Below are positions 1-41,066 of a stretch of 64,000 nt of DNA, one piece after another. The position numbers and the translations under genes were made by a program. The DNA is from Macrostomum lignano (Eukaryota), in contig NIVC01000293.1 in assembly GCA_002269645.1 (NCBI GenBank), forward strand, positions 310,001 to 374,000, in the 5' to 3' direction. The notes under the pieces are model-generated. The model ran no database searches, was not told the DNA's origin, and was given only the letters and a program-made list of their open reading frames with translations. The stretch's first letter is position 1. Each line of letters starts with the position of its first letter.

Positions 1-27
1 TATCCATAATCACAATTACTCGAAAAG

Positions 28-3059: not shown

Positions 3060-3090
<31 letters not shown>

Positions 3091-3313: not shown

Positions 3314-3353
<40 letters not shown>

Positions 3354-3375
3354 GGAGAGAGAGAGAATGAGAGAG
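3060..3375. repeat. (GT)n, GCCGCA-type and (GA)n microsatellite cluster inside Helitron unit A
   Basis: Seen directly. The counterpart at 10453-10780 differs in repeat number. Confidence 0.9.
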
Positions 3376-10451: not shown

Positions 10452-10485
<34 letters not shown>

Positions 10486-10708
10486 ATAATTGAATAGTCT
10501 CTTACCACTGTGTGCACTGCGAGCCGCCGACCTGCACCGTCGCAGCCGCAGCCGCAACCGCAACCGCAGCCGTAGTCGCAGCCACGGCAGTAGCGGTGGT
10601 TCCGTTCAGACGGATAACTACTTCGATTGTTAATGGAAAGAGAGAGACGGAGAGAGACACGGACAGAGAGAGACGGATAGAGAGAGAGAGTGAAAGAGAG
10701 AGAGAGAG

Positions 10709-10756
<48 letters not shown>

Positions 10757-13735: not shown

Positions 13736-14381
13736 GCAGTGTTGGGCACTATATTGAAAATTTTAAATTCCGCTATGACGCCAATTATTATTAATACAAA
13801 TAAGTTAATTGTTTATAAACACTTAACGGCAGGTCAGTAGTGTTAATGAAAAGTATTTTCAGGTCTGGCATAGGTATTCTGGCACAGATAAATGTTGATC
13901 AGCTCTATGCAGTACATAAAGCCTGGTTCACATTTCCGCAAATAGCTCCGTGCTTCAAACTAATAGCAGTTCGCCGCCGCTACCAGCTGATTGCGAACGC
14001 TACTATCCGTGCGCAGCTCTACTATCCGAAAGTCCGCCGCTCCTGGCGGACTCTAATAGTGATTTTATTTGGTTCTATTCATTAGAACTAGAAAGGACAA
14101 TATAACTTTCAATTTTATGCATGGCAAACGAAACCGAAATGCACCCCATTCACATAAACACTCACAACTCCTTGCTTTGAGTTGTCCGCTTCTGCAGCAT
14201 GGATGGCAGGGGTAGGTGTACAGTAAATTTAAACGATAGTGTCATTGCTCACTGCTCACTGTACAATGAGTACAGACAATTTCTTGCGCAACCAAACAGG
14301 AGCACAGCTGGAGGCCATATGAAACGAATAGAATCATGCTCTATTCTTCACCCCACACTCCACACAACTTGATACCTGGAA

Positions 14382-15208
14382 ATGTCCGACTTGTCACACG
14401 AGACTCCGGAGTTGGATGCAACTCTGATAGATGAAGTTGCCAAACATGAAGTTGTCTACAAAATCTCAAGCCGAAAATTCAAGGATCATCAGGCGAAAAC
14501 CAGCGCATGGAATCAGATCGCTGAGACTTTGGGCAAGGATGCAACTTGGTGCCTTAAGCGGTTTCAAGGTCTCAAGCGTGACTACTTTGTTTTCCGGCGT
14601 GGAAGCAAGCTTTCGAGTGGAAGTGCGGTCAAGCCTACTCCCAGGCGGTTGGGAATATACAGTCGCATGAACTTCCTGGACAAGTGTGACTACATTGGCG
14701 ATACTACCTCAAATGTGCCTCCGCCCACACCAGAACTTGTAGCTGTGGGATCTGCTGGACCCTCTCAGCAGGCAACCTCGGTCAATGAAAAGGCGCAACA
14801 GTCCAGTCGAGCAGAGGCACAGGCTGCAACAACTGACCCCAGTGAGGCGTCAATGCGAGAGTTTGCGGAAAGTGCGCCAAAAAGGCCAGAAAGGCAACTG
14901 CAACAGAAGCATCAAAGCTGGATACTGCCCTCAGCCAGTTGACCCAGCAACTGACAAAAGATGAGGACGAATATGCCTCCTTTGGCCAAGCAATTGGACA
15001 GGCCATCCGTCGGCTTCCAACGCAAATTGAGCGCGACTATGCCATGGCGCACCTGCGGAGCGAGTTGTTCACAATCCAACTCCACGGCCTGCCCCGAAGC
15101 GTTGCCATCCGAACTGAGCCTGCCGCTGATGCCGCTGCTGGATCAGTTTCCTTCGACGACATGCTCGGCTCCATCATATCCACGGTCACACCTCCCAATG
15201 ACTCCTAG
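14382..15208 (+). CDS. Harbinger MADF (Myb/SANT-like) DNA-binding protein, frameshifted near 14845-14940
   Basis: LIDEVAKHEVVYKISSRKFKDHQAKTSAWNQIAETLG (MADF). The second frame continues KCAKKARK...KLDTALSQLTQQLTKDEDEYASFGQAIG. Confidence 0.85.
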
Positions 15209-15539
15209 AAGTGCGTGAGATAAAAGCGATAGAGTGCAATATTTTGCAAACTAGAAGGAAATCTTTTTTTCCTTTTTTTCATGACCAGATTGCATTGTGC
15301 GTGTCAGAGAGCAAGTGCAGAGATCGAGAGAGACAGAAAATATAATGAAATCATAAATGAATATGTTGAAAATATTGTCTCCACAGTCTTGCCAATTTAT
15401 TTACGAGTTTGGATTACTTTCTGCTGCAGCATTGTACTTTCTCGCCGCCTTGTTTGAAATTTCCACAAAATTAGCTCATAAATTCACGTTCTGTATGCGA
15501 AATAAACATGCGGAATAAATTAATGATTCATCAACAGTG

Positions 15540-16880
15540 TTATCGATTATCATCAGTAGGTACATGTATCATTGCGCTCTGCCATGGAATGGCACCATTG
15601 GGGCTGACGAAGAAGTCCCTCAGCAGCATCTGTTGCTCCCGAGCGGAGGCGCTGCTTCGATTTCCACCCAGATTCCGGGCTGGCATTACCCCGACGCTGC
15701 CTGTCACGGTGGATCTCCATGAACCCTCCTGTACCTGGCCGGTGGGCAGTTCCTGGTCAACACTTCCAGGTGGCATGTAGGACCGAGTTGCTGTAATTTT
15801 GGCCTCGTCCTCTATTCGCACGAAGTTTTGCAGTACGAATGCGCACCGAAAAAAGGCCTCAACGTGATCGATTCTCGCTATGACAGGCCGCAGGAAGAGT
15901 CGCCAGCGAGTCACCAGGATTCCAAACGCATTCTCAATTGTGCGTCTTGCTCGAGACAGCCGGTAGTTGAACACTTGCGTCTTGTAGTCCAATGGTACCA
16001 TTCCGCCGCGCCCAGGGAATGGGCGCATGAGATAATTCTTCAGCGGGAAAGCCTCATCACCGACAATTGCAAATGGCATGACGAGGCTGCTGCCAGAAAT
16101 GCAGGAAGGCTCCAGGACTTTCACCCATCCAGACTCCAATCCAGCGTACAAGGCTGAACGTGAGAAGACTCCAGCGTCTCCTTCTCTCCCTGAGCTGCCA
16201 CTCTCTATGTACGTGAAGATGTAGTTACTGTCGCACATGGCGAGTACCAGTGAGCTGAACTGTTGCTTGTAATTGAAGTACTGGGAGCCGGTGTTTCTTG
16301 GACAATGAACCTTGAAATGCTTGCCGTCAATTGCACCGAGGCAGTTCGGAAAATGCCACTTTTCCCAGAATCCACCAGCGATTGCTTTCCATTCTTCTGC
16401 AGATGCAGGAAACTTTAGATATGTTGACGCCAGCTTGTCGTAGATGGCAATCGCAGTCTCGAACACGACCCCTGACACAGTAGAGCGTCCTCGGCCAAAT
16501 CGAAACGACAAGTCGGCTTGGCTGCAACCCGAAGCCAGGTAGCAAAGCGTCATCATTAGCTTCTCCTCTGCCGGAACGGCCTCTCTTCTTGCACATGGCC
16601 AGGAGAGTTTGGTTGCAACCAGTGAAAACAGATGCTCAAACCGAGCCGGGCGCATGCGCATATACTTGAAGTACATCTCCGAGTCTCTATCTCGCAGATG
16701 TGGGATCAATCCGGCAAACTCGCCAAGCTCTTCTCTTCGTTGATGACTCGGTCTCCGCCACCATTGCCTAGGGCGGCGGCCTTGCCTGATCAGCCTACGA
16801 TGTTGCAGTATCGTTACGATTGCCAGTAGCAGTAGCTTCTTGGCTCGTGAAAGCATGTTTGAAATCTGAATGCTGGTCAC
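15540..16880 (-). CDS. Harbinger DDE transposase (DDE_Tnp_4-like), intact 446 aa
   Basis: Motifs YLASGCSQADLSFRFG, FPNCLGAIDGKH, YFNYKQQFS, IVGDEAFPL and FNYRLSRARRTIENAFGIL. Confidence 0.95.
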   Translation of the reverse strand: MTSIQISNMLSRAKKLLLLAIVTILQHRRLIRQGRRPRQWWRRPSHQRREELGEFAGLIPHLRDRDSEMYFKYMRMRPARFEHLFSLVATKLSWPCARREAVPAEEKLMMTLCYLASGCSQADLSFRFGRGRSTVSGVVFETAIAIYDKLASTYLKFPASAEEWKAIAGGFWEKWHFPNCLGAIDGKHFKVHCPRNTGSQYFNYKQQFSSLVLAMCDSNYIFTYIESGSSGREGDAGVFSRSALYAGLESGWVKVLEPSCISGSSLVMPFAIVGDEAFPLKNYLMRPFPGRGGMVPLDYKTQVFNYRLSRARRTIENAFGILVTRWRLFLRPVIARIDHVEAFFRCAFVLQNFVRIEDEAKITATRSYMPPGSVDQELPTGQVQEGSWRSTVTGSVGVMPARNLGGNRSSASAREQQMLLRDFFVSPNGAIPWQSAMIHVPTDDNR

Positions 16881-17152
16881 GGCTTTCTGGTCAAGATTTT
16901 TTAGATTGAAAACGCCCTGTCCGAAGCACAGATAGGGCTAGCACTAGACTGAATTACTTTATATACTCGTAACAGTGGCCAAGAATCAAATATTGCCTAT
17001 TATCTTCGCGGGTTAAATTGAACTGCATGGCGATGCATCTATTTGAGGCCGATAGTAGCACCCGCTAAAAGTGCTCGCGCTGAGCTAGCAGATTTCTGAA
17101 AATCAGCTATTAGCTGTGAGCGTCGGCTATTTGCGGAAATGTGAACCAGGCT

Positions 17153-22505: not shown

Positions 22506-23140
22506 AGCAGACATTTTTATTTAATTAGCCTGCTTGTAGAAAAGCACAAACAAATCTTGCAGCTTTAAAACTTGTATTTCGTTCAAAACTAGATAAATTT
22601 GATTTTCACTTTTATAAAGGCAAAAACGCTAATTTTGCTACTAAAAAGACTAGAAAACGCATTTTTGCGGTTGAAATATATAGTTATTCTAGTATCTGCG
22701 ACTAAAACTTAAAGGCTTACAGAAACAGATATAAAAATTTTATTAGATGCACATGTTAAAAAGGAAGACGGATTTTTACCCATTCTTCCAATTCTTCCAT
22801 CTCGAAGTCATAGCCGAATAGAAGGGACGCTGCTGGGACTAAGATCGCATTGGCCATGCAGGGACAGAGAGGACTTCTGCAGGGGGTTCTTGCGCTGGCG
22901 AGCCTTCATACACCACTAAAAGTACTATTTCATTACCGAATTTCCAGAAGTACATGTATAAGTACACGTAACTGCACGCTTTTGGCACTAAATGTGTTAA
23001 CACGTCGACAAATAGCGATGATGTAGATGCATTGTCACTTTCGGAGATCTTTAGACTAATGTTTAACTTACTTTAGCCGCTTAACTGCCTGTGACCGCGC
23101 CAAAGCGCCAGTCTGGCTCTTAATTTGCATGCTTAACATA

Positions 23141-23288
23141 AGTAGTGGATAGAAATATAGGATATGGCCAATGGCCATACATCCCTCCTTTGTCGGGCAC
23201 ATTCACTCTGCCGCTCTCTTGCTTGCTTCGCTCCTCGTTCGGGACATCGTTCATTTGATGTCCATATCCTATATTTTCATCCACTACT
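23141..23288. repeat. 148-bp foldback with AGTAGT...ACTACT ends (27-bp arms, 2 mismatches)
   Basis: AGTAGTGGATAGAAATATAGGATATGG / CCATATCCTATATTTTCATCCACTACT. Confidence 0.85.
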
Positions 23289-23369
23289 TAGAAGTGTTTT
23301 TACTAGTGTGTAAAAAAAAGCTTTATACCCCCCATACTAGGGAAGAGTTATTTATGTTTTGTAAAAACG

Positions 23370-23590
23370 TTGAGGGTACTGAGGGTGAGGGCAGTCCCCA
23401 AAACAAAAAGGGGGTACCTTAATATTTTCACTTTTTTGATATTCTATAAATATGCCTTAGACCCCCCCACTTCTATGGGGATTTTAACTTTCATAAAAAA
23501 CCTAAATTTTCTATACCCACTTTTAAAGATGGAAGGTGCCTTCACCCTCATGCCCTCATTAGTTTTTAAAAATTAATAAAAAATTGTTTT
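23370..23590. repeat. Quasi-palindromic GAGGGTGAGGG/CCCTCACCCTC module; diverged inverted homologue at about 36845-36990
   Basis: GGTGCCTTCACCCTCATGCCCTCA matches the reverse complement of TGAGGGCATGAGGGTGAGGGCACC (36858-36881) with one mismatch. Confidence 0.7.
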
Positions 23591-23602
23591 AAGACCTATC
23601 CT

Positions 23603-23850
23603 TTTTCAGGATTTTGTAAAACTTAATTTTAAGTTTCCGAAGTAGAGTAACACTTTTTCAGGATTTTGTAAAACATAGTTTTAAGTGTCCGAAGTAGAGT
23701 AACACTTTTTCAGGATTTTGTAACTTTCGAGGCGTGTATTTTGTAATTTTCAGGGAGTGTAAAAAGTGTATAACATTTTTCAGTATCTTTGTAATTTTCG
23801 GGGAGTGTAAAAAGTGTAAAACATTTTTTAGAATTTTGTAATTTCCGAAG
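23603..23850. repeat. 52-bp tandem repeat, decaying rightward
   Basis: CAGGATTTTG at 23607, 23659 and 23711. Confidence 0.8.
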
Positions 23851-25952
23851 AGTATCTTAACGACGAGGACTATGAAGAGATAAGTAGTGACTCTTCTGAG
23901 AATAATAGCGAATTTGAGAGTGATGCCAACTCTTTTGGGGTGACTCACACTCTGATTAAGCTAGCACGCAGACTATGGTTAGCTACGCGGAGGCCAACTC
24001 CATTGAGAGTTGCTCTGAGTCAGAGAGGAAAAATGAAAAAGGGGAACTACGACATAATTGGCACTCTGCCAAAAACTGCACACGATGTGTCGTTCTTTCA
24101 TTGGTTGGGGTAATTCAATATATATAGAAAATCCCAATACTAAAAATGGTTTGTCAGTAGGTATCCCTATAATACACTCCGAGAGAGAAAAATCTGCCTT
24201 GCCAGCCTCCCTTCCAACAGAGTTGTAGCTTACTTTTTCATCTTTTAGTATGAGTGATATTGAAGCTGAAGTTGGATTAGTAGAAGCTCTAACTGTAGTA
24301 GGGGATTATTTTAGGAACGGGAATTATTGTGGGTTCAAATATGCTTTTTGCCTACTATCAGTAGTTTCAACCCGGGGAAATAATTAGAGCGGGGGTAATT
24401 CGCTATTTTTGGGGTTTCTCTAGAACTACAGAGCAGTTGGGCTCTTTGAGAAGCATCTGGCTTGGTTTTGTCTCACATAGAGGCGCCTAACCGCAGTACC
24501 CCTGTGAAACTTGTCTCTGCCTGGCTGAAAGCTTGTAATGAGTGAGTAGGCTGGGTTGGAGGGTAATAGTGGATCAGGAAGGGCTGTGGGTGGCTGTATA
24601 GGAAGGCAGGCCTATACCTGTTCCAGTTGGTGCTTTGACGGTCTCCTTCAAGTGCCCTCTGAGCGAACAGCCAGCGACCCTATTAAAGCTGGAGTGTGCC
24701 AGAACCAGGACTGAGTCTGAGCAGGACGAGACCGTTGGCACGGTCACTATAGAAATGGCGGGTTGGCGAAGCAAAGGGTGAAATAGTCCCGGCGAGTAGC
24801 CCTCCTGCCGCTTCAAAGATAAGAGACTGTCTGGCAAGAGTACCCGGGGTTTAGTTGGGGGGGGGGAGGCTCCTTCGGGCTGCCAAGGCCGTGGAGGCGG
24901 TCATATGACCGGTTGTTTTGGCTTTTCTAACCCAGGAGAAGGCACGGGCTTCCCTGAATGGTTCACTCTACCCCCTCTAGGAGGCCCCGGGGAGGTTTAT
25001 GTACATTTGGCCTGAGTACCCGGGGGTGGTGGGCGGTCGGCCCAGCATGGTAGCCACGGCTCTCGGCCTTCGGGCCATCCCTAATAGGCTAGGGTCTATC
25101 CAACTTGGTTTTTTGGGTACGGGCTTCCTGACTGGTATGTCGTTCCGCTGTCACTGTCCCCCGGGGAGGTTTTTGATCTGATTTTTGCCCTTTGTACAGT
25201 CCTCTTAGCTCCAATTAGGATCTCAGTGTACATAAGTACACTCCCAACCTGGAATCAATTTCTATCTAGTGGCGTAAGAGCCTAATCAATGGCTGAGGCG
25301 CCGAATACTTATTACTGTACTGTACTTGGAGAAGCATCTGGCTTAAGCGTCTTGCGAACAAGGAATTCGGTAAGAAAAGGAAATAAAAAAGGGAATTATA
25401 GGATAGGATTGCACAGAGGAGTCTTGCTCTAAATCTATAACTGGGAGTCTTGCCCAACGCAAAACGGGGAAACTTAAGATAGGAACTAATGTAAAGACCA
25501 ACTTTTGTACAATCAAATAACCATTTCCGTTCTTCATTATTCAACTTTTGTGTTAACTAAATCTAAATTGGTGTCCTGACTCAGTTCTTTAAACCTAAAT
25601 CTAGAATTAGGGAACAGCAGGAACCTGGTGGCAGCGAACTACCAAAAGTCTCAACCAGTAGGGAGTAAATCCACTAGTAAAATCCTTAGCAATAAGAAAA
25701 CCAGAAGCCTAAACCGCAGGTAGCACGACTTGTCCATAACCAAGTGCAATCCAGAGGTAGTAAAGCGGCTCAATAGTCAACTCTCCTCCTTAGGAGAGCA
25801 AGCCTGCTCTAATAAAAAGAAAGTCTCCAAAAAAGTAAAAGCACTGAAAAGGAGGAGGCCTCTTTTTGCGTAGCCTTAAGGAGAGAATTGCAGGCGTTGC
25901 GCAGTCGGGGTTAAAAATTGATAGTAAAGCGTTTAGCAGCCTTATTTAAGCA

Positions 25953-26450
25953 TTGGCTGTTGATTTAGCTTCTCAGAGTAAGAACGATATTGAGGAGCAC
26001 TTTAAAAACATTTCTAAAGCCCTTACTCATATCGGCTCATTAAAGACTTTGGGAGAATTTGAGCTAGCTAGAACGATTGCTTTTGCAGTAACGATGCATA
26101 CAGAAGCAGAAGCAAGAGTTGCAAAGGACTTTCGCATCACAAAGCGTAAGGTTTTAGACAACTGCCGTTTTTACGATTTCTGCATGAAGTTTCCAGCGCT
26201 TATTTTTTGTGGGTTTAGTTTGTCAACTATTATTAAGTATAGAGGACCCATTCTGGGAGCTAGTAAAGAGGACGAAGAATTGAAGGAGTTGCTGCAGATC
26301 AATCAGGAGACTGTTGAATATCTTGAGGGCGAAAAGATAATCGAAAAAGATGTCTCCGCTTGGAGTAATGATGTTAGAGCGAGCTACGATAACCACGAAG
26401 AGGAAGGTTCGGTGTTTTCGATATCTACCGCGGTGCTCCAGGTAGGATGA
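25953..26450 (+). CDS. Unknown helical protein, paralogue 1 (5' part decayed from about 25700)
   Basis: 165-codon open frame; KFPALIFCGFSLSTIIKYRGPI aligns with paralogue 3. Confidence 0.5.
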   Translation: MAVDLASQSKNDIEEHFKNISKALTHIGSLKTLGEFELARTIAFAVTMHTEAEARVAKDFRITKRKVLDNCRFYDFCMKFPALIFCGFSLSTIIKYRGPILGASKEDEELKELLQINQETVEYLEGEKIIEKDVSAWSNDVRASYDNHEEEGSVFSISTAVLQVG

Positions 26451-27079
26451 GAGCTCGACTTTAAGGAAACACTCAATTATTTTATGTTTTATCTAATTTT
26501 TCTTTAATCTTTTGCCACGTTTTAGGGTGCAGAAGGCGGTCAAAGCGAGAACATGGACGAAGTTGCTAGTGAAGAAGATCAGCAAGAGGATGATGACCTC
26601 TACAATGTTGATTGATTCTAATAAACGCAAGTCTTTTTATCATTATAGCTCTGAACTAGCAGAAAAACTGTTTTCTGACAGTTGAAAATATCTGACAAGC
26701 TGTCCAGACCCAAAGACAATAAAATAGCAGACCTTGTCAAAGTTTAGCTTTTAGCATTTCATTCACAAAGGTGGATTTTTATACTATGCTTTTTACTGAC
26801 AGTAGCAAGACATGAGTATGGTTGATATTTTTTGCTGAAGGGAATAAGAGTTGACGAAGTCTTCACCAAATTTTTAGTAGTTCAGAGCTATAATGCATAT
26901 AGGCTAACAACCGATATTTTTCTTCACTTTTTACTGACAGTACCAAGACATGAGTATGGTTGATGTTTTTTGCTAAAAGGAATGAGACTCATTCGAAATC
27001 TAGTAAAACGTTTTATCAAGGCAAAAGTTCGTTTTGGATTAGGCATTTATAATCACAACCCCAACAATTGCATAGATTG

Positions 27080-27505
27080 TCTAACCATATACGGAAATTG
27101 TCTAAGCTATGAAGATGCTGTGAAATTACATAGGGAATACAGAAAACCAAAACTGTTTAGAAAGAGGATTCACTATGCAAAAGACACCATTTGGCATGCA
27201 GATATTATTGTCCTACCACCTAAAAGAGGTTACAAATATGCTCTCACTGTTATAGATGGTTTCACACGTTACGCTTGGGCAGTTCCTTTGAAAACAAAGA
27301 CCGGAGCAGAAGATGCAGAAGCATTCCAGAAAATCTTTAAAGATTCAGGAAGACGATCAGAAAGACTTTGTGTTGATGAATGCAAGGAGTATTATAATCA
27401 GCATATGCACAAGCTATACTCGTTTTCAAGAGACAACGTTAGAAAGAAGGATGAAAAGGGTGAATATATAAACAAGATGTTCTCAATTTATGGCGAGTCC
27501 AAGAT
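27080..27505 (+). pseudogene. Polinton-type retroviral-like (rve) integrase, truncated before the catalytic Glu
   Basis: LHREYRKPKLFRKRIH...IWHADIIVLP...GYKYALTVIDGFTRYAWAVPLKTK...RLCVDECKEYYN. The expected ERFNRT helix is absent. Confidence 0.85.
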
Positions 27506-27745
27506 TTATTTCAGGACTTCTGGGACCTTTAGTATTTCTATACCTCTGGCAAGAGCCAAAGTCACTAGATCTCTGTAATTCTTTAGTTTCCTCACGGAGA
27601 TTTTCTCTTGGTTCTTGGTCATAAAAGTTAGTAAGGCGTCTGTGAAAGGAATTTCCATAGTTTCTGAGCCTTTGAAAACAGAAATATTTTCCTTATTAAT
27701 GTCGATATAATATTCCACTGGTTCATTATAAATGTTTTTTCTCAC
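27506..27745 (-). pseudogene. Small Polinton-associated hypothetical ORF fragment
   Basis: ISVFKGSETMEIPFTDALLTFMTKNQEKISVRKLKNYRDLV resembles the T.GL..LL..K.P...L..Y pattern of Polinton accessory proteins (recognised by eye only). Confidence 0.4.
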
Positions 27746-28649
27746 GTACTTATTCCAAATACATATTTCCCATCATGTTCTACACGCTCTACTGGTCCAA
27801 AAATGTTGTCTGTCACTTTTAGTTGTGATTGTTCTGGTTGCGGCTGTAGTTGTGGTTGCGGGCCGCGGCTGCATCTGTGGTGCTTCTAGAATTTTTACCA
27901 AAGCCTTTTGCACCTATGTTTCCTGTATTTCGTCGATAGTTTCTTTACTTGATCAATATTTTTCTTAGCTTCACCATACCCGGGTTTATGAAACTGTGGC
28001 TGCTTGGATAAACTCATTGTAGGATCGTTGCTCCTTATTAATTAGCCCAGTACTCTCTTTTCTGCTTGTGCTAGCTCCTCCGATTCAGATATCTGCTGCG
28101 CATTTTTTTCGCTTCATTTCTTACTTTATGTTTTCTTTTAGTTAAAAAAATGAACGACTCACTGACAATTCATCCAATGGACCATTAACTTGAAATTTTG
28201 TCAATTTTTTGCAAATATCTGACAGTTTTATGCACAGCTAACTATAGATAACATCTCTATGGAATCTGCTGCTGCTAGCCATAAAAAAGCCGAGGCATGA
28301 ACATTGATTCCTACAATGTCATTGATTTCTACTTACAGTATGATTGTGTTTTATTGTGTGACAAACATCTGACAGCATGCCAGAAATATAACATCTTTTA
28401 AACTAGCTGACGCCTTGAATCGACAATATGCTGCTTACTGCGGTGCTGAATTTGTCAATGTTATTGTCTTAAAAAAGTGCCTCCGATTTCTTAAAAATAT
28501 AATAGAAACTATAGACATGAGAATGAATTACATTCCGAAGAAGGAATTGGAGATTAGCTGGCATAATAATTATACCAAAATATCACAGTAAAAATAGGCT
28601 TCAGTAAGCACGTATTTCTAGGAAGAGCATTAAACATTCAGGCAGCAAT

Positions 28650-29905
28650 GACTCATTTGCCTCCAATCTTCTCTACTGGAAAATATCCTGGCGAATTTCA
28701 TATTCCAGGGTATTCTTTCACAGGTCCAAGTACAAATCTAGACAAGAGACTCAATCCAATTACAGACTGGCCTCGGTATGACAGTTTACAAATTAACCCG
28801 ATAGATTGAACCACAGAATATACACAGAATGGTGAATTAGCTCTCTCGCAAAAAAATCTTGCTCCGAAACTATATTCGCGATATGCTGCTAATGATGAGG
28901 CGCGTGATAAGTAGTAGATTTAGGCAGCTAGTGCCATAGACAGCGGTTAGGTGAGCTGTCCACAGAATATACTGTATATACTGTGTATACTCTGTGGAGC
29001 TGTCAGCCGATGCAATATTTTCGATAGCAAGCGGCAGCATGAATGCTAAGACAAAATCCAAGATCCAATGCGCAGCAGAGGAAGTGGAAGACTGCAGTTG
29101 TGTAAGCCAAACAATTTCTGCCTCCTTCGCGCGTGCCATTCGGCCTGTGATAATCTCCCACTGCGACGATCACTCCGAGCGATGTGCGGTAGGAATAGCA
29201 AAGATCTACAGCCAGCTGCGCCTGCATCACTGGTGCCGCAGCCAATCAAAGATCGCGCAGCAAAGGAAGCGAGGCCGATCAGTTGCTTTCGAAAAATCGG
29301 ACGAAATAAAAAAGTTCAAGCGAATGGGCGCAATAAGCAAATTCTAATTCAATGTTAATCATGTTAATTTTTAAATTCTTAAATTGTTATTCAATTAATT
29401 CTTATTCAATTAATTCCTACATTCTTCAATTCAATGTTAATTCTAATTCAATGTTATCAAAAAATGCACGTGCAAGCAGCACAGCTAATCGAAAAGTCTT
29501 TTACGCTTATCCTTACCACTTTACATTGACTTTTAATACATATAGCCTAGGGCGCTTAGCTTAATCTACGTCAATTTAATTGCACTACTTTTCGCCACCT
29601 CATCATTAGTAGTCTATGAACATTTTATTCCGATAACTAGTTTAAGCGCTGATTCACCATTCTGTGTATATTCTGTGGATTGGACTACTTACTATCATGA
29701 CAAAAACTATAGAAATGCTGAAAACACTTCTTCAAATCTAGAGGAAGCTCTAGCAAAGAAGCATATAGCTGATGAAAAATGATAGCTGATTTAGATGCCA
29801 TTCCAATCAGTGAATTGACTGTGAAAGAAAGACTCATTCGAAATCTAGTAAAACGTATTATCAGGGCAAAAGTTCGTTTTGGATTAGGCATTCATACTCA
29901 CAACC
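28650..29905 (+). pseudogene. Parvovirus-VP1-like/Polinton PLA2-like domain split by a P-type MITE
   Basis: GEFHIPGYSFTGPSTNLDKRLN...INPID | WTTYYHDKNY...KKHIADEK(M)IADLDAI...IRNLVKRIIRAKVRFGLG. Removing 28812-29677 plus one TSD restores the frame. Confidence 0.8.
28812..29677 (+). mobile_element. 866-bp non-autonomous P-element-like transposon
   Basis: 26-bp perfect TIR CACAGAATATACACAGAATGGTGAAT, 8-bp TSD GATTG(A/G)AC, and an internal P-transposase C-terminal remnant IAKIYSQLRLHHWCR. Confidence 0.85.
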
Positions 29906-30927
29906 CAGTAAAATGCATGAGCGGGCTTACGGGACAAAATTTTAACGTCCTCCATAACCCTCCTAATTCCATTCATATTATCCCCGACAGAATCAGAAAA
30001 ACGGGGGGTCGCACTTGCTCCGAAAACTTCGAACATAATCCCATTAAATCCATCCATTTTATCTTTGAATCAGAAAAAAAGGGAGTCGCACTTGCTCCGA
30101 AAACTTCGAACATAATACCATTAAATTCATCCATATTATCACTGACAGAATCAGAGCATAACAGGTGTCCTACATAATCCACTGACATCCACCCATAGCA
30201 TCTTCGAAACAATCAGAAATAATCTGCATTATTCTCCCCACATTTAATTCACAACGCGAAAGCACATCCCTAAGACTTTAAATCATCAGCGCAGGGTGCT
30301 CATCCTCCGAAAAAGTTAAATTTTTTTCTAAAAATGTTTCCAGTTGTCTTTCCAGGTTTCTAATACAAAGCGCACGAGCCTAATTACAAGAGTAAGTATC
30401 AATGCAAACTAGAATGCAGCGAGTACATGAGAAAATATTGGGCCGACCACACAATAAATGTCCCTAATATTAATCTAGCTCTCCAAAGACACTGGTTTCT
30501 TAAGTATGGAGTAACCTACGTAAAAGCTTACGACAGCTACTATAACTTTACAGAAATCATTAAGCAATTGTAGAATGTCGTTACAATACGCTTTAAGACT
30601 TTAAGACTGCATTAATATATATTTTACGCATGGTATCTTGCTGGTTGGAGGGTGGGTGATGAGCAGAATAGTTATGGCAGCTGTTTCTTGTCATAGCGCG
30701 AGCGGCGTTGGTAGCCACTCCCAGTTGGCTCTTATTCGTTGCATTAATTTGACGAACGTTCGTAAAAATCATGTGCAGAATAGAGAAAAAAGCTTGCCCA
30801 GCTCAGGATCCCAGGATCCCTTAACTAGCTTAAAGGATCCCTTGCCTAGCTTTAGAAACGTCCATTTAGTTCCTTGTTTAAACCCCCAGCCTAACCCCCA
30901 GCTTTAACCCCCAGCTAGGGGTTAAAG

Positions 30928-33699
30928 CATGGGTCCCCAACCTGCGGCCCGCGGGCCGCATGCGGCCCGCGAGCCCTTTTTGTGCGGCCCGCGGCACCTT
31001 CCAGTAGTTTGCATTACATGCGGCCCGCCGAGTCTATCACTGGATTTCACTGCGGCCCCCGAAAATGTTAAAGTTTTCCTAGCTGTATTGAAAATATGCC
31101 CAGAAATCTCTTACCCCCCCAACCGCTAGAAGCGACGCTTCAATTCATTTGGATTGCTATTTTAGCCACTCCTAGCGCACAAATGTACATGCAGTCAAGA
31201 GTTGAAGTGAAAAGTAGGAAGGAATGCTAGCTAATATCAATAAGGTTCAAGGCAAAGGAGGTGGGGGTTGGGGGTAAGGGCTCTACTGCCTCTCTCTCTC
31301 TCATGAAAGCTAGTTTAGTTCAGTCGATATTTTCTCTCCCCCACAGTGCGCTGATTCAACCTCCGCTGATTCAACCCCTCACCGCTTCAAACCTCTCTCT
31401 CCATATCTGGCTACGCATGCGTGGGGGAAGGGGGAGTGACGCACAACACAACCCCCCACTTTCCCTCCCCCCGCACTAGTATATTCTCGCTAGCAGTTTA
31501 TTGGCTGCTTCTTTCTCACTGTACAATGAAACGGCCTGACGGGTCTGCGGCCCAAAGCCTCGCTGGGGGTGGCATTTCGTCTCTAGTCCAGCCCATAGTT
31601 CTTGTAACCAATAGAAACTTATCGATTTTTCTTCTACACCCTTTTTCATGGGTGTACATTGTTTATTGGCCCTTAAATGCCAGTAGAGTTCCTTAAAATG
31701 GTGGACCAGTAGCAAGGAGTAACTCTATAACTCAGTAACTCTATAGTTCCAGATGGCACACGCTGCAAAAAAGAGGAAGATCGCGGAGGAGAAGCGCTCC
31801 TTTAATGCCGACTGGTGTCAGTTCTTTTTCGTGGAGCGCAAGGGGAAGCCGCTGTGTGTCATCTGCCAGGAGACGATCGCCGTATGCAAGGAGTTCAATG
31901 TGAAGCGGCACTTCACCACGAACCATGCCAAGTTTGTGGACATGCCGGAGGACAAGCGCAAGACTGAGTTCACTCGCTTGGCAGCCAACTTGGACCGGCA
32001 GAATGCCCTCTTTAAAAAGCCTGTGAATCTGGCTCAATCTGCCGCAATCCGCAACACGCGCGCCAGCTACCGAGTTGCCCACCTGGTAGCGACCCAGCTA
32101 AAGCCCTTCACCGACGGGGCATTTGTAAAGGAGTGCATGATGGCCGCTGTAGAGGAAGTCTGCCCAGAAAAAAAGGATCTCTTCACCAACATCAGCCTCT
32201 CTGCTTCCACCATCACTCGCCGCATTGAAGAGATGGCAATCGACATTCGTTCAACGCTTAAGCAGCGCTGCCACAGTGCACGTTTCTTCTCCATTGCCCT
32301 CGACGAGTCTACCGACGTCAAGGACACAGCTCAGCTCGCCATCTTCTTTCGTGGCGTCACGGACACCTTTGACGTAGTGGAAGAATTCGTCCGGCTGATG
32401 CCGATGCAAGGAACCACCACTGGTGCCGACATCCTGCAGTGCGTGCTAAAGTTGGTGCAGGAATTCGAGCTGGATCTATCACGCCTGTGTGCCATTACCA
32501 CTGACGGTGCACCTGCCATGGTTGGGCCAACCAAGGGCTTTGCTTCCCTCCTGGTAAAGCACTGCCGGGACCAGGGACATATGCAGGACATCATGCGCAT
32601 CCACTGCATCGTACACCAAGAAGTCCTCTGTGCAAAGTCGACCACCATAACGTCCGTTATGGGCGTCGTGGTGAAGGCGGTGAATTTTGTGCTAGCTCGG
32701 GCCCTGAATCACCGCCAGTTCCGGGACTTGCTGTCAGAGGCCAAAGCACAGTATGGGGACCTTCTCTATTACTGTGAGGTGCGCTGGCTCAGCCGCGGGA
32801 AGATGCTGCAAAGAGTCTTCGATCTGAGGGAGGAGCTAGCCGACTTCTTGGATTCAAAGGGAGCTGCTGTCCAGGAGTTCACTGACCCAGCGTGGGTGCA
32901 AGACCTCGCCTTCCTTGTTGACCTGACTGGGCACCTCAACACCCTGAACACCCAGCTGCAAGGCCGTGGCGTCCTTGTGCCAGACATGATAAACAAGATC
33001 AAGGCATTCGAGACCAAGCTCAGGCTGTGGGAAGCACAGATAAAGAATCGAGAGCTCACACACTTTCCCAACCTTGCAACTTTCGAGCTGACTAATTCAG
33101 CTGCCCAGAAGTACGCTGACGCCCTTTCGGACCTGAGGGACGAGTTCGCCAACCGCTTCTCGGAGTTGCGAGCGAATTCAATGGAGCTGAAGCTATTCAG
33201 CAGCCCTTTCGACCTGGATGCTGATGAAGTGCCTGCCAATCTGCAGATGGAGCTCATTGAGCTTCATTGTTCTGACGAGCTCAAAGCAAAGTTCGGCTGC
33301 ACCTCCCCAATGGGATTTTGGAGCCAGGGCATCAAGCCTGCTGACTTTCCAGGCCTCGTCCTACACGCCACGAAGATTGCTGCCATGTTTGGTTCTACAT
33401 ACGCATGTGAACAGCTCTTCAGCCGAATGAAGCTGACCAAGAGCAAAACTAGAGCGCAGTTGACTGACGGCCACCTCGAAGATGCACTGCTGCTCGCTGT
33501 TTCGTCGATCAAGCCAAATGTTGAACTGCTGTCGAAGGATAAGGAGCACCAGCCATCTCATTGATTTTGTTTGACATTTGGAAATGGACATTTTTGCTTG
33601 GTTTTGTGTATTTCATGTTTTGTGTATTAGCATGCGGCCCGCACACACCAAGCCAGTTGTCAATGCGGCCCGCCGCCCATAGAAGGTTGGGGACCCCTG
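30928..33699 (+). mobile_element. Complete hAT (Charlie/SPIN-like) transposon, 2772 bp
   Basis: TIRs CATGGGTCCCCAACCT / AGGTTGGGGACCCCTG (1 mismatch), 8-bp TSD GGTTAAAG, and subterminal GCGGCCCG repeats. Confidence 0.96.
31753..33564 (+). CDS. hAT transposase, intact 603 aa (GTF2IRD2/SPIN-like)
   Basis: BED-like PLCVICQE...KRHFTTNH, FSIALDESTD, TTDGAPAM, IHCIVHQE, VRWLSRG and dimerisation motif FGSTYACEQLFSRMK. Confidence 0.96.
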   Translation: MAHAAKKRKIAEEKRSFNADWCQFFFVERKGKPLCVICQETIAVCKEFNVKRHFTTNHAKFVDMPEDKRKTEFTRLAANLDRQNALFKKPVNLAQSAAIRNTRASYRVAHLVATQLKPFTDGAFVKECMMAAVEEVCPEKKDLFTNISLSASTITRRIEEMAIDIRSTLKQRCHSARFFSIALDESTDVKDTAQLAIFFRGVTDTFDVVEEFVRLMPMQGTTTGADILQCVLKLVQEFELDLSRLCAITTDGAPAMVGPTKGFASLLVKHCRDQGHMQDIMRIHCIVHQEVLCAKSTTITSVMGVVVKAVNFVLARALNHRQFRDLLSEAKAQYGDLLYYCEVRWLSRGKMLQRVFDLREELADFLDSKGAAVQEFTDPAWVQDLAFLVDLTGHLNTLNTQLQGRGVLVPDMINKIKAFETKLRLWEAQIKNRELTHFPNLATFELTNSAAQKYADALSDLRDEFANRFSELRANSMELKLFSSPFDLDADEVPANLQMELIELHCSDELKAKFGCTSPMGFWSQGIKPADFPGLVLHATKIAAMFGSTYACEQLFSRMKLTKSKTRAQLTDGHLEDALLLAVSSIKPNVELLSKDKEHQPSH

Positions 33700-34149
33700 G
33701 GTTAAAGCAACCCCCAGCTAGGGGTTAACGCAACCCCCAGCCTTCTCAACCCCCAGCTCTTTCAGCAGTCTTCCTAGTTCTTTACTTGGCGCATGCAATA
33801 AAAAACCCGCCCCTTTTCCCAGGCAACCCCAATCAACCATTAATAGACAATCGGCGGGTTTCCCATATTATAGAATATTCTAGAATAAAAAAAGAATCCA
33901 GTGATTACCGAGCCGACACCAATTGTATATAAACAGCCGATTCACACCGCCCCTCGCCTCATCCCGCCTGCTCCGCCGGCAGGGTCCGCTCCGCCTTGGC
34001 TCCGCCTCGTTATGAGTTCCAGCAATGCTGCAAAAAATTGTGAATACGATAAGGAGTATTAGTAGTAAATATTCTGCCAGTACGGCAATCACCTTTGCTA
34101 ATCTATAAGATCAGGGAAAAGCTTTACTTTTAAACTTTTTAAAAAGTAG

Positions 34150-34804
34150 ACGTAAATTCTATAAAAAGAGCGCTTGGAGAAAGAAAAATCTTCTAATCAA
34201 GAAAAAGAAGACCGCGAAGCTCGGTTTTTAGCTCGCTTAAAGCAAGAAATCATGTCAATAAAAAACGAACAGCTGGTGATTAAAACAAGGTAAGTCTTGC
34301 TTATTTTTTACTATATAGACAATTTCCTCAATACTTTAAGAGGCAGAAGTTAAAAAGCATTTGAAGGAATTGAAAGAACGTGAGAAAAAAGCTAAACAGA
34401 AGAAGATAAAAGCCAGAGAGAAGAAGAAAAAGAGCCTCCACGCAAAGCTTAGAACTTCGATAGCTAATATGCACTATGACCTGTCGCCGACATCACTAGA
34501 ACTACCACATCAAGAGCCAATAGGAGAGGCTGTGAACAAACTACGAAGCCTGGTAAACCACTCCGAAAATGTTAATGCATCGCTATTGTGGCAACGAATA
34601 GTGATCGGACAATGGCTTACCTACATCCACAGATTGTTGGATAAGAAGGCAGAGCTTATTGTCTATTTAATGGCACAAAAAGTTAAGATTAGTAAGACTG
34701 ATATCTACTTTCTTCGGCTTCTTAAGTTGCCAATTAGGGAGATCAAAACAAATTTTAAGATTATCAAAGAGTTGGTGAAGGAGGATGGCGCATACTGGAG
34801 ATAA
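34150..34804 (+). pseudogene. Unknown protein, paralogue 2 (spliced, probably disrupted)
   Basis: EDREARFLARLKQEIMSIKNEQLVIKT|GTAAGT (donor 34290), then open frame 34361-34804 ending IYFLRLLKLPIREIKTNFKIIKELV. Confidence 0.5.
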
Positions 34805-35094
34805 TAAGTTAATCAATACAAATGTTATATTGTTACATACATTACTGTATGCGTTAAACCTTTGCTATTATAACGGGTTGAACTGTTATTAAATATTTAC
34901 AGTCCATGAGGATATCATCCTATTGAGGCCCTTCGAAGAGAAGCTAAAAGTCTACACATGCTACACAGTGGTCTGACTACTTTTTATTTAAACTAGCTCA
35001 TAATATCACATGACACTAGAAGCATAGTTTTGTGCTGTACTTTAAGACAGGATTAAGACATAATTTAGGATTAACACAAAAGATATATGATTGT

Positions 35095-35450
35095 GCTGTA
35101 CTCATTCCTATATGCTTCTTAAACAAGTTTCGCGCGAGAGACCTGCATAGCAACCTGGCAAGCTTTTTTGTGGTGTACTCATTTCCATATGCTTCTTAAA
35201 CAATTTTCACGCGAGAAACCTGCAGAGCAACCTGGCAAGCTTTTTTATTGTGCTTTACTCATTCCTATATGCTTCTTAAACAAGTTTCACGCGAGAAACC
35301 TGCATAACAACCTGGCAAGCTTCTTGAACAAGTTTCACGCGAGAAACCTGCATATTAACCTGGCAAGCTTTTTTATTGATCAATGCACTCATTCCTATAT
35401 GCTTCTTGAACAAGTTTCACGCGAGAAACCTGCATAGCAACCTGACAAGC
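35095..35450. repeat. About 76-80-bp minisatellite, about 5 copies
   Basis: CTCATTCCTATATGCTTCTTAAACAAG...GCGAGAAACCTGCA...AACCTGGCAAGCTT recurs. Confidence 0.9.
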
Positions 35451-35639
35451 TTTTCTTTATTAACGAGAAACCAAATCCAGTGAAAAGAGTTGTATTGAGT
35501 AATAAGGAGATTCACGAGATTGTGCTACAGTTTGAGACTGAAGATGGGGTGGGTGTTGATTTCAACGATGAAGAGTTTGTATTGACGTTAATCATTAAGA
35601 GAATGTAAATAAAGCTAATTTATTGAAGATCGATCAAGA

Positions 35640-36306
35640 ATCTAGTAAAAAGACTAGGGGTGAAGGGAACGAAAAAAAGCAAAAGAGAAGATCGACAGAG
35701 AGGTGCGCTTTGTGGCGAATCTGAAGGTTAAACTAGACAACATACGAAACGAGGCTTGCACGGTCAAGACGAAGTAAGTTTTCATTTTTATACGTACATT
35801 TAATTTGAGTAAACAAATTGTTTATTACTCGTATATTTTGTTTTTTAGCTTCAACGATGCTAAGCGACTATGCACCGCCGAGGTCAGTCCACTTGATGAT
35901 GTCGCCCATCTCCAATTCCAAGAGCTGGAAACGTTTGTGCACAGTTTAAGCCAGTTGGAGTGCATCGCACGGAAAAAGCAGGCCGATAGCCACCTTGAGA
36001 GAAAAACACGGGCTAACCGTCGAAGGCGTAGCCAAAAGGCTAAGCATCGAAACAAAGTTTGCCCAGCGGCTATATACGTTCTATGGCCTCATAACCAAAT
36101 ACCTAGCTCTGCAAGCAACTGGCTACGCTTTTGAAACGCTGCTATCTTACAAGGTGGCTATTGAAAAGTTTGCGCCCGATGATTCAAACTATGACTGCAA
36201 GATGAGGGCGCCTATTACCATTCGATTCGAAGGAGAAGACGATGACGAAGACACCCTACTTGCTGAAAGCATATCGAGCATGTCTACGAATACTATGAGG
36301 GAGTAG
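35640..36306 (+). pseudogene. Unknown protein, paralogue 3 (intron 35774-35848, frameshifted)
   Basis: EVRFVANLKVKLDNIRNEACTVKT|N FNDAKRL...; C-terminal KYLALQATGYAFETLLSYKVAI. Confidence 0.55.
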
Positions 36307-37103
36307 TTTTTAATAGCTAACTTAAAAACATTGAATGGACAATAAGCACTAGCCACCTTTTATAAATTGTATTTTTTTAATGTTCAGAATTTATTCTGAA
36401 CTTTCAGAATAATGATATAAAATACACAATCTTTATGTCTACCGTATTCTTTTGTGCCTCCAGTAGTCTCTTTTTCTGTTACTAAAAATAGACAAAAATG
36501 GCACACTATATTCAATAATACAATTTGAATGAATTGCAAGTAGGAGACCCAGTAGAGTATCGTGCAGAAAATAGCTGATTGAATATCTAATGCAGAACCT
36601 AGAAATAATGGTTTACTGAAGGCCCTTTTATATATTAAAAATTTACTATTGTTAAATTGGATGACACTTTCAAATTTTATATACCCGAAATCGCATTGAA
36701 TCGAGCCGTGAATCCAACTTTTCTCATGGTTTTACTCTCGAAATCGTGAAAATTTAACTTTTTCAAAATTTTCAAAAATCACAAAAAATCGCTGTTTTCA
36801 GACCATTTTCACCTGTTTTTAGTCATTTTTACTCATTTTTAGTGATTTTCAAAATGAGTGAGGGCATGAGGGTGAGGGCACCCTCCTTTTTAAAAAGTAT
36901 AAAATTCTGAAAAATCTTTGTTCTGTGAAATATTCCAAAGGCCAATGCCCCCACATGCTCTCACCCTCAACACCCTCACTCACAGATTTTTATATATAAA
37001 ATTATATATATATATATATATGATATTATATATTATAATGTATATTATAATATTATAATATATATAATATTCATATCACACACACCTTGCAACAATGACC
37101 TGG

Positions 37104-37200
37104 TAGTAGTAGTGTTATATAAAGGGGTGAGTCATACAGCGAGCTAGCGCAATGCGCCCGGGCAATTAGTGTGGCGCACCCCCTTATAACACTACTACTA
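37104..37200. repeat. 97-bp foldback with (TAG)3...(CTA)3 ends
   Basis: TAGTAGTAGTGTTATATAAAGGGGTG / CACCCCCTTATAACACTACTACTA. Confidence 0.85.
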
Positions 37201-38437
37201 ATAATTATCCAGATTTAAATAAATCACGCGCCCTGTTATAGAGTTGTGCGTTTTTACTTTTATTAGCAATTATCTATTTTTAATTTAATGTAACAAAAAA
37301 TATAGTTATTCTTGTTTTGTTTGTTTAATTTATGTGATTTTGCATTGATTTAGGATGTAATATATATCTCGGAAATATTTCATATCTAATAAAATCTCCT
37401 AATGATGCTAATAAGCAAGCAGCTGCTGCGTCAGTAACTTTAACTTCAGAGAATTATCAATTACTTATTAATAGGGAAGAGGAAGAGAAAACACATTAGG
37501 TATAGTGATGATTTTTCAATCTCAATATTTTTCTACCCAGCCTAAATGTTATCCAGAGTATGTAATTTCAAATATATTGTTTTTTCAATAATTAGTAATT
37601 ATTAATATCAACTTTGAGTCTTTCTTTAATTAGGTACATGTGGAAAAAGTCAATTATTCAATACGCGGAACCAGATCCCAAAGACTTTAATTCCCTAAAC
37701 CCAGGGTGCTCATCTTCCGAAAAAATTAAATTTTCTCTAAAAATGTTTCCAGTCGTCTCTCCAGGTTCTTATTACAAAGCGCACAAGCCTAATTACAAGA
37801 GTAAGCTCTTCCTCTTCAATCCTCATCAATTTAGCTTTACTCGAGGCCAACATCCTCTTCTATCTGGCCTTGCACGAGGCCAAATTTTATCGCAAACTGG
37901 CTTTCTGGCCTTTGCTTCTCTTCTCTCCACACAATTGTACAGTCTTGAGCACACTGGTTTCGACTACAATCTCTCTTTCCACCATGCTTCTCCTTCATGC
38001 TCCTCACCTCCTCAGCCTATGCTCTTTGTACACAGAAGTCTCACCCCTCACTTTCACACGCCTTATGCTTTATCGTAAACTGAGCTATATCGATTACTTT
38101 TCCCTGCTTGACTCCAAGATTGTAGTCTAGAATTTACTGGAATTCTACGGCTAACTGTATATTTAAGCAAACACAAACACTCGGGCTTCTTCACCCCACA
38201 TATGCCATTGAAGTGATCTTAATTTAAGCATGTTATGACCAATGTTATTTTTTAGTCTAATGCGAAATTCAGAAGGTTTTCCTATCAGGAAAGTACAGCA
38301 CATGCTTGTGCGGCAGTAAAGATCTGATTGCGTGAAGCGAACACCAATGAAATGCGTTATAGAAATCATATATAGCGTTCAGTGAGAATGAAGCCACTCT
38401 CCGCCTTTGTCCGCCCTTGTACGCTCTCGCCCCCTTT

Positions 38438-38486
38438 GCGCCTCGCGCCTCGCGCCTCGCGCCTCGCGCCTCGCGCCTCGCGCCTC
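38438..38486. repeat. (GCGCCTC)7 heptamer array
   Basis: Seen directly. Confidence 0.9.
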
Positions 38487-39076
38487 GCCCTCTTGCCGCA
38501 CTCGGTTCTCCGCCTCTTTGCCCTCTAAACTGCTCCATTAGCTTGCCCCAACAATCGGGCCTGAACTCTAATATCCCAATCTAACAGAGATAAATCCGGA
38601 CAAACGTCAATTCGTGCAACAATATCGATAAGTAGCCTGTGGCTCCATTTTCACTGAATTGCTTAACAAATTTGCGTAATTGCGTGATCAATATCCTATT
38701 AGGAATTGCTACTAACATTGATTAGTAATAAAAATCTTGTTGAAGGTTAGAGATCGAGAGAAACAAATCGAACCCCCGACTTATTTAATTCAACAGAAAC
38801 ATCGACGATTATAGACATCGTCAAAGAATCTTAAAACGAAACTAAGGACTGCACAAAATGTCACAGTCGTGCTGCACGCTGAAAGCGATCTAAGAAATTT
38901 TCCGCTAGACAAAATATATCATAAGTGGACTGAATGTTTGCTTCAGAAAAATACCGATTTTTAAAGCAGTGCAGGTAAGACTCGAAATCTGTTTTCTGTG
39001 TATTTCTGGGTACTTTTTATCATTCCTCATTGCATTGTTTCATTTCTTACTATTTGAAGAAGGTTTAAGACCCAAG

Positions 39077-39352
39077 GGAAAAGGTTCGAATCAAGGAAAA
39101 CAAGTTGGAGAGCCGCGAGGGGGAAAAAATCTTACGTGGACTCGAATGTCCCGTGTGTTATAACTAGCTATTGCAATCTAAAAACTGGATTGCCCACATT
39201 CGTTCTGTCTGAGATGCGTCCAAAGTTTGTACATTGCGGCAACGAACAGTATAAAGTGTCCAGAATGCCGTGCGGAAACATTCAAGACGGTCGATGAGCT
39301 GCAAGCAAATGTGGCTATTGAGCGTACGATTGAAAATCGTCGAAGAAATTAG
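39077..39352 (+). pseudogene. C3HC4 RING-finger (TRIM-like) pseudogene, not present in the ORF track
   Basis: GLECPVCYN*LLQSK/KLDCPHSFCLRCVQSLY...IKCPECRAETF...LQANVAIERTIE*, with one stop and one frameshift. An upstream donor GTAAGA lies near 38976. Confidence 0.8.
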
Positions 39353-41066
39353 TTTATTAAATTAGTTTTGACTTAAGATTCTGTAGTCATCGTTTATTAG
39401 TTTTTGAAATATAAAATGAGTTAAAACACCTTTGGAAAAAGAAATATAAACGAGTCTTTGTTTCTTTTCTTTGCTTAAAGTGAAATTACCATTTATGATT
39501 CTAGCTTGCGTGCAGAGTGAAACTCTTACTCAGTCAGCATGAATAAGCAAATTTTACTTTGAACTAAACTGCGTAGTACCAGGTTTCACAGCCATAGGTC
39601 TTATACTCCTTAGACCACGTCACTGCACTGCAGAGAGATTATAGGGTTCTCGGACCATAGTGTTAGAGCACTCAGGCCAGCTACTTGTCGTGCTAGTTTA
39701 AGGACAGACAGAGGGAGAGTTAGTAGGCAGCAGCAGTAGTCATCAAAGAGTAAAAAACTTAGTAAAATATCCTTTTACACATTCGGCTAATGTTTTAACA
39801 TAGTAGTAAAAATTATTAACTATCCAACATTCACATCCTTGCTACCCGCTAATAATGTTTAATAACTCAAAACCTAGAATATAATCCTTGCAGCTCTTCA
39901 GGCTTTGGGAATTTTATACAAAAAGTCATGAAGAGCTCACCGCATATGCCGGTGCTAAGTTCTTGAAGGATAGTCTGAGCGGCAAATTGTTTGCCCTTTG
40001 TTTGCTTGAACATTTTGTTTTTATCTCTAACGATCTTGCGCAAATCGAATCACTCGAGTTATAAAGTGAGTTTCGGTAGGCAATGACAATAGCTTTTTTG
40101 AAAGCCAATTCTTCTGGAAACATCATGCGATTTTGAAATTACAAACAGCAAGGTTTACGAGCATTAAACGTTTTACAATTTTACTTTAGTGTATCCAGCT
40201 TTGATATTTCCTGGTTACAGTCTAATGACTATTCTTGAGTACAAATCAGCAATAGAGAGATAAATGGACGCAGAGTTAAGCAATACTCTAGGAAGGTACA
40301 TAAGAAACAGAGTTCATTTAAAATAAGGAAAACCGAATGCAAAGTGAGAAAACTCTCTATGTTTGTCTGTGTGTGGGGGCCTCTCTCTCTCTCTCTCTCT
40401 CTCTTTCTTTTAAAAAGCAACTTAATAATTTATTGCTATAACTATAACCCGGCTGTCCTCTCTTAAAACATCTGTTGTGAAGGTACTTTCCATCTTTTTT
40501 GGAAAAACGAAAGGGTGGACCGCGAATTCCATCCTGCTGATTTTCCTGGATTAAGTTTTGCTTGGAGCTTTGTTAAGACTCTGTTAAATATTCAGTTGTT
40601 ACATTGCTTATTTTGATTCAACTATCGTGGTTTTAATTCACTAAGGCTGGAAAATTTCCTTGTAGTATAGAAAAAAGCTAAAGTTGTCGGCATTTGTCAG
40701 CAGCTAGTTTTAACTTTCTGAGTACAATGCATTTGTTTCATTTAGCTAGATGTATTTTTATGCATTTGGTATTCCTGTTGTTCCGTATACGGATTTTTTC
40801 CTCAGCTCAAAATTGCTACATTTCAAGCATTTTTGACAATTTTTTCCACTTCTTTCGATTTTTTGACATGAAATGCTTCTTTCGCATCCATATCATCAGA
40901 ACTCTATTCGTGTAGTTGCGAAACATTTAGAAAGACGAGAAGCACCACAAATCAGGTAAGGTTTCATTTGTATTTTCACCATTGTCATGACTATATGACG
41001 CCCTTTATTTGTTTTTCATTTAAATGATAGAAGTTGTGATCCAATTTGACACTAACAGGCCAACAT

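Follow-up and report, generated by a model that had tools for sequence, protein, structure and literature searches.

Decayed copies of a predicted helix-turn-helix gene family with two old subfamilies in a Maverick-like remnant of Macrostomum lignano

The 64,000-nucleotide stretch of Macrostomum lignano DNA analysed here, called the window (assembly GCA_002269645.1, contig NIVC01000293.1, positions 310,001 to 374,000; coordinates below are those of the window), contains at about 23141-37199 what is best read as a collapsed Maverick/Polinton remnant within transposon-rich DNA. In this remnant and beside it lie copies of a real, unnamed and lineage-restricted gene family, whose products are predicted to fold around a helix-turn-helix (HTH). 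A sequence-only reading of the locus had described three whole, intron-bearing paralogs of basic, helical, possibly DNA-binding proteins, amplified inside a Polinton-like element. The family stands, in two subfamilies (types A and B) of which only type B bears the shared intron, but the third whole paralog and the local amplification do not, and a fourth copy had been missed. We propose that these dead genes once encoded a DNA-binding regulator borne by flatworm Mavericks, and that intact members of the family would bind element DNA and regulate or tether it; this proposal, which draws on structure models and on analogy, has in our estimate a probability of roughly one half. The genes concerned are the following.

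25670-26620, plus strand: gene 1, a type A pseudogene (type-A hidden Markov model (HMM), independent E-value (iE) 2.9e-37 over 25815-26402).
34012-34289, plus strand: gene 2a, a type-B exon 1 with stops and frameshifts, followed by a phase-2 donor at 34290 (type-B HMM, iE 8.8e-12 and 1.4e-5).
34340-34801, plus strand: ORF 2b, a 5′-truncated helical open reading frame (ORF) with its own K/E-rich leader, a separate gene for which kinship to the family was not detected.
35612-36306, plus strand: gene 3, a type B pseudogene (type-B HMM, iE 6.7e-6, 2.6e-11 and 2.6e-33 for its three pieces).
About 40008-40290 (39870-40290 when taken more widely), plus strand: gene 4, a decayed type A copy (iE 1.2e-11), with stops at 40165 and 40261.

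A profile built from genes 1 and 3 recovered 11 proteins at E<=0.001 among 1,835,955,588 representative sequences, and a second search, with an alignment of those, scored 8000 candidates and returned 8 proteins; 6 of these had not come up before, which brought the relatives to 17. Seven of the eight second-search proteins are named Macrostomum lignano, and three of the seven have HTH-type names; across the 17 relatives an organism name is carried by seven, all of them M. lignano. Two M. lignano type-A proteins belong to an annotation that was built from RNA-seq and that gives one prefix to transcripts with 95% similarity (PMC5730564). The suffix g5 and cluster sizes of 4-8 suggest, indirectly, that the M. 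lignano relatives form a transcribed multicopy family; a search of supplements of PMC5816591 (one file) and PMC5730564 (three files) did not turn up the gene ids Mlig000052 and Mlig029811. Neither the three ORFs of the sequence-only reading nor the relatives reached the cut-off of any family in Pfam, NCBIfam or PHROGs, and none of 13 members matched a Pfam family at the curated cut-off; when the family profile was searched against PDB sequences, nothing matched at E<=0.001. No match was found in phages and plasmids, none of 173 pattern matches to one relative (P0012) in bacterial and archaeal genomes was confirmed, and a single-sequence word search with gene 1 (98 candidates) returned nothing.

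Type A, which includes gene 1, and type B, which includes gene 3, share 13-23% identity (40 pairs), and the split between them is supported at 96/95 in the tree, in which the long branch of P0010 is placed unsurely. Profiles made from external proteins alone picked up the other subfamily in 17 of 18 tests, with scores of 31-86 bits; the highest score among 1800 shuffles was 9.4 bits. The motif pair noted earlier in genes 1 and 3 is present and above chance, the alignment of gene 1 with the last piece of gene 3 scoring 50 against a shuffle mean of 27.8 (p 0.001, 2000 shuffles), and the homology is backed by the external relatives. On a quick tree the approximately unbiased (AU) test rejected genes 1 and 3 as sisters (p 1.9e-7); P0017 was left out of both trees, and P0010 and gene 4 also out of the AU-test tree. 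Because both types occur in M. lignano, the A/B duplication predates this copy of the element, and these sequence comparisons place it as old and not local, contrary to the idea that the genes were amplified within the element.

Profiles run on 858 six-frame segments of the window matched at four places, and every local copy is dead, with stops, frameshifts or truncations in all. Gene 1 carries in-frame stops at 25836, 25845 and 25947, and its N-terminal part is out of frame and poorly recognizable. At the position of the shared intron it is uninterrupted, the HMM match running in a single frame from 25815 to 26402 through the three stops; a putative 3′ intron at 26442-26525 (GT..AG, phase 0), proposed from the letters alone, would leave a short acidic last exon. 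Gene 4, which lies outside the probable element ends, has two stretches that share about 50% identity with gene 1, and it groups with that gene at 82/70. A 150-bp piece at 30247-30396, inside the element, recurs at 85% identity at 37656-37805, outside it and 2.2 kb upstream of gene 4, and this recurrence suggests a second related remnant at about 37600-40300. Both pieces end at GTAAG, possibly the splice donor of a further small exon. Gene 4 is closely preceded by a broken C3HC4 RING-finger gene (39130-39349, Pfam E 8e-5).

The intron is best seen in gene 3, in which a 5′-truncated exon 1 extends to 35773, a 75-nt GT..AG intron with an in-frame stop occupies 35774-35848, and exon 2 has a frameshift near 35965-35990. 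This intron is supported by the collinearity of the exon pieces in seven of nine type-B relatives, where they abut with a one-residue gap that corresponds to the split codon; P0004 differs by -5 and P0001 is without the region. Aligned with the nine, gene 2a and exon 1 of gene 3 stop at an identical residue in seven, and the EDR...IKT and EDR...VKT stretches reported earlier are indeed there, with a phase-2 GTAAGT directly behind each (at 34290 and 35774). The exon-1 stretches of genes 2a and 3 align with a score of 83, compared with a shuffled maximum of 44 (z 13.6, 2000 shuffles), while at the DNA level the same regions score no better than chance (20, shuffle mean 21.5); identity by codon position is 14, 20 and 9 of 33, and this pattern therefore points to old divergence under protein-level selection. 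On this sequence evidence the conserved intron of the earlier description holds for gene 3 and for the donor of gene 2a, marking type B only, and does not extend to gene 1.

The exon 2 of gene 2a is absent, although its relative P0005 from M. lignano, identical to it at 34 of 41 residues, continues into ordinary type-B exon 2 sequence. What had been taken as one gene 2 is a chimera in which a family exon 1 and its donor abut the unrelated-looking ORF 2b. The control by shuffling upheld the exon-1 pair and the pairing of genes 1 and 3 but not the part at 34340-34801: ORF 2b scores -2.8 bits with the family HMM and a probability of 0.2-0.3% with hhalign, 44 of 500 shuffles score as high, and its alignments with gene 1 (p 0.61) and gene 3 (p 0.83; 2000 shuffles) are those of chance. 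Placing it in the family by hand with softer gap penalties was likewise non-significant (39 and 44 of 500 shuffles). Between 34290 and 34480 there are 25 AG dinucleotides; the reading frame is kept at 3 of them, each lacking a pyrimidine tract. ORF 2b had no homologs in a word search of 74 candidates, and its one match among 199 pattern matches (L001), to a small protein of a bacterium without relation to it, was discarded as a seed match due to chance. Its single-sequence structure model is poor (pLDDT 54.6), and fold searches with it were uninformative. ESM Atlas feature leads for ORF 2b are LmbU-like, HTH and DUF6192 at 0.91-0.94, and the sets it shares with gene 1 are HTH_3 (15% of members), DUF6192 (56%) and PF01818; by this route ORF 2b may be a very remote relative of the family. 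The simplest reading of the junction is that a deletion from the intron of 2a into the middle of another gene would have joined the two.

Lys-rich stretches do occur in all three genes, as had been noted, but "basic" overstates the matter, since the charge of ten intact relatives is close to neutral (net -6 to +8, K+R 14-18%). Intact members, of about 250 amino acids, are nearly all helical in prediction, comprising a hairpin of helices, a long helix rich in K and E, another long helix that runs into the HTH, a small helical bundle and often an acidic tail. The structure model of an intact relative has a pLDDT of 87, and the predicted HTH comprises residues 156-182 of P0003. The best structural neighbors are the DNA-binding domains of ParB, KorB and Spo0J, with a modest Z of at most 6.0 and matches that span model residues 130-230 only; Pfam ParBc itself matched none of 13 members. 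Homodimer prediction for P0003 gave no clear result (score 0.69, against 0.58 for one unrelated control). The predicted recognition helices differ between types A and B. The earlier suggestion of an uncharacterized helical family is borne out, and DNA binding is probable.

The remnant that carries these genes has few recognizable core functions. Its other features are as follows.

23141-23582, no strand: probable left end, with AGTAGT at 23141 bordering a short hairpin (23139-23290) and the left inverted-repeat arm at 23519-23582.
26964-27500, plus strand: duplicated tail of the PLA2-like gene, then a truncated rve integrase (Pfam rve E 7.5e-9, above cut-off; foamy-virus integrase E 2e-4).
27509-27885, minus strand: broken gene with no significant Pfam or PHROGs match, which may resemble a common Polinton accessory gene.
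28650-29907, plus strand: parvovirus-type PLA2-like (PLA2X-like) gene, a weak match (Pfam PF08398 E 0.07, below cut-off; parvovirus VP1 E 0.14-2.7).
30928-33699, plus strand: young hAT (Spin-doc type) transposon inserted in the element (Pfam zf-C2H2_12, DUF4371 and Dimer_Tnp_hAT; 8-bp target duplication).
35090-35452, no strand: tandem array of about five units of 48-82 bp, each with a near-palindromic 16-mer.
35438-35608, plus strand: 56-aa fragment with no Pfam, PDB or PHROGs support, which may resemble the C-terminus of a Polinton minor capsid protein.
36836-37199, no strand: probable right end, with the right inverted-repeat arm at 36836-36898, a TA-rich run and a hairpin (37104-37200) ending ACTACT.

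The earlier designation of the region as Polinton-like is sustained by the rve integrase, which is the type expected of a Maverick/Polinton even though the gene is truncated; the weakly matching PLA2-like gene and the imperfect inverted ends are possible further marks. It does not extend to the polymerase, ATPase and major capsid: no Pfam match to protein-primed PolB, packaging ATPase, protease or major capsid was found among 167 of the 181 ORFs of at least 33 aa, one of them scanned in part, the other 14 lying at the hAT edges, the tandem array and the right end. Their lack is compatible with a deleted remnant, so that this copy is not an intact Maverick and is best called Maverick-like; the core genes would have been lost by internal deletions after insertion. 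The inverted arms (64 nt, 81% identity) are short and degenerate. AGTAGT at 23141 and ACTACT ending at 37199 agree with the Maverick end motif, in which the terminal inverted repeats (TIRs) end (AGT)2..(ACT)2 or (AG)3..(CT)3 (PMC8097293), and a 6-bp target-site duplication is absent at the ends (best 3 of 6 over four motif pairs, none when nearby end positions were scanned). The hairpins at both probable ends, bounded by AGTAGT and ACTACT, could be small independent inverted-repeat elements.

Within the remnant, 26985-27061 and 29830-29906 are 95% identical, the tail of the PLA2-like gene being duplicated before the integrase, and the PLA2-like gene is split by an insertion of about 870 bp (28811-29678) with 34-nt inverted ends (94%), an unclassified non-autonomous element. 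Sequence just 5′ of this gene (28591-28649) recurs inverted, at 73%, at 36571-36629 on the minus strand near the right end, a sign of further internal rearrangement. The hAT element, with an open ORF of 605 codons and third-position GC of 0.68, appears intact and has no relation to the HTH family. Elsewhere the window is rich in transposons (Helitron, Harbinger-like, MADF, hAT): Helitron helicase genes lie in near-identical tandem duplication with a 7.39-kb period at 1-11400, a Harbinger-like pair at 14373-16937 comprises a MADF ORF (plus strand) and a DDE_Tnp_4 transposase (minus strand), and a very large, nearly perfect inverted repeat at 50645-58188 has arms of about 2.7 kb, 100% identical in blocks, with 252-254-bp subrepeats.

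The locus carries dead members of a single old family that is divided into two subfamilies, and we propose that the intact products are sequence-specific DNA-binding regulators. These would be made in the host nucleus, and transcription and splicing there would account for the spliceosomal intron. They probably act as dimers at inverted or repeated sites within the DNA of the element itself, switching or tethering it, as the KorB/ParB-type structural neighbors do for plasmids, and types A and B would read different sites because their recognition helices differ. The tandem array is a candidate protein-binding array, although its reading as an operator is marginal, as is the strength of its palindromes (equaled in 108 and 1025 of 3000 shuffles for two units), which may resemble parS and E2F sites. 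A more specific version, in which flatworm Mavericks have a spliced ParB/KorB-like regulator pair (A and B), derived from a plasmid- or phage-type partition or repressor domain, that binds the ends or palindromic arrays and controls the switch between integrated and replicating states or tethers episomes, appears doubtful to us; no regulator of this kind for Mavericks turned up in the literature searched. For Maverick-like elements the family probably represents a novel kind of gene with introns, either cargo or regulatory.

Other accounts deserve weight. Well short of even odds, but to be taken seriously, is that the genes are passengers, a flatworm host HTH family captured repeatedly by Mavericks, like wasp and krma in nematodes, that works on host DNA and is of no use to the element. 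Gene 1 lies between the left end and the integrase, a slot that is partly GC-rich (0.45-0.57 over 24201-25400) and matches the nematode cargo slot (10.1101/2022.07.12.499685); also in favor are the spliceosomal intron and the origin of all named relatives in one flatworm, two of them annotated as transcribed. A captured host family sits less well with fold neighbors that are prokaryotic and plasmid HTH domains, with no animal transcription-factor family among them, with 13 members that fall in no Pfam family at the curated cut-off, and with copies at three places of one remnant. We consider it unlikely that genes of another mobile element, or host pseudogenes, came to lie beside Maverick debris by accumulation alone, even though Helitron, Harbinger-like and hAT elements abound in the window, duplications and insertions have made a patchwork of the remnant itself, and gene 4 is outside the element ends. 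Genes 1, 2a and 3 are interleaved with the integrase and PLA2-like remnants in the same orientation and with similar GC and decay, neither element ends nor target duplications belonging to these genes were observed, and the 150-bp repeat upstream of gene 4 suggests a second related remnant there.

A virion core or DNA-condensing protein, like the core proteins of adenoviruses, would bind without sequence specificity and would explain the Lys-rich stretches and the proximity to genes of the structural module, PLA2X having a pX-like tail (PMC8502044). The near-neutral charge, together with a predicted fold that is ordered, contains an HTH and has recognition helices particular to each subfamily, renders such a protein quite improbable. 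Three whole paralogs amplified in this element with one common intron, as first described, would be in keeping with the donor position shared by genes 2a and 3 and the three named ESM Atlas sets common to ORF 2b and gene 1; with the gene 1 and gene 3 clade rejected by the AU test, ORF 2b non-significant and gene 1 continuous at the intron position, we find this version hardly credible. Under our preferred reading, that of a regulator carried by the element, a spliced HTH protein would be a candidate for the control of Maverick silence when integrated and of reactivation, a question made testable by the intact, apparently transcribed relatives in M. lignano, a model organism amenable to RNAi and transgenesis.

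Among known systems, the ParB/KorB/Spo0J/SopB/VirB/Noc domain is 6-14% identical to the family, which is eukaryotic and spliced and, among the matches listed, has no match to the N-terminal CTPase domain, with long helices there instead. Ginger DNA transposons (PMC2836005) likewise combine an integrase-type transposase with short TIRs and introns, but their introns are in the transposase gene; here there is no evident HHCC finger directly before the integrase core, and a PLA2-like gene and several accessory genes are present. The alpha (Mayetiola-class) adintoviruses/Polintons (PMC8502044) share with this element the rve integrase and probably the parvovirus-type PLA2-like gene and inverted ends, and differ in that PolB, FtsK, adenain and hexon were not detected here and that no HTH gene is named in the available text or readable maps of that paper. 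Keywords for an HTH or ParB-like Maverick gene found none in the accessible parts of PMC8502044 (including section 3.2 and the readable supplement), PMC10748475, PMC11071296, PMC3671162, PMC12220804, PMC11131425 and 10.64898/2026.10.13.758929; the family could coincide with one of the unnamed "Adintoc" groups or with a listed Maverick cargo gene. The closest parallel is in nematode Mavericks, which have intron-bearing cargo families, the wasp proteases and krma kinases, beside intronless core genes (Widen et al., 10.1101/2022.07.12.499685). Because introns occur in that cargo, and introner-derived introns in dinoflagellate elements (PMC11957031), introns alone are unsurprising here. Both are multigene families with introns, and gene 1 occupies the same slot, the intron being verified for gene 3 and putative for gene 1; the nematode cargo encodes a protease or kinase with a ubiquitin-like N-terminus, whereas here it is an HTH protein with flatworm relatives and copies near the right end. 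If the genes are cargo only, the pattern described in nematodes would gain a third cargo family and extend to a new phylum.

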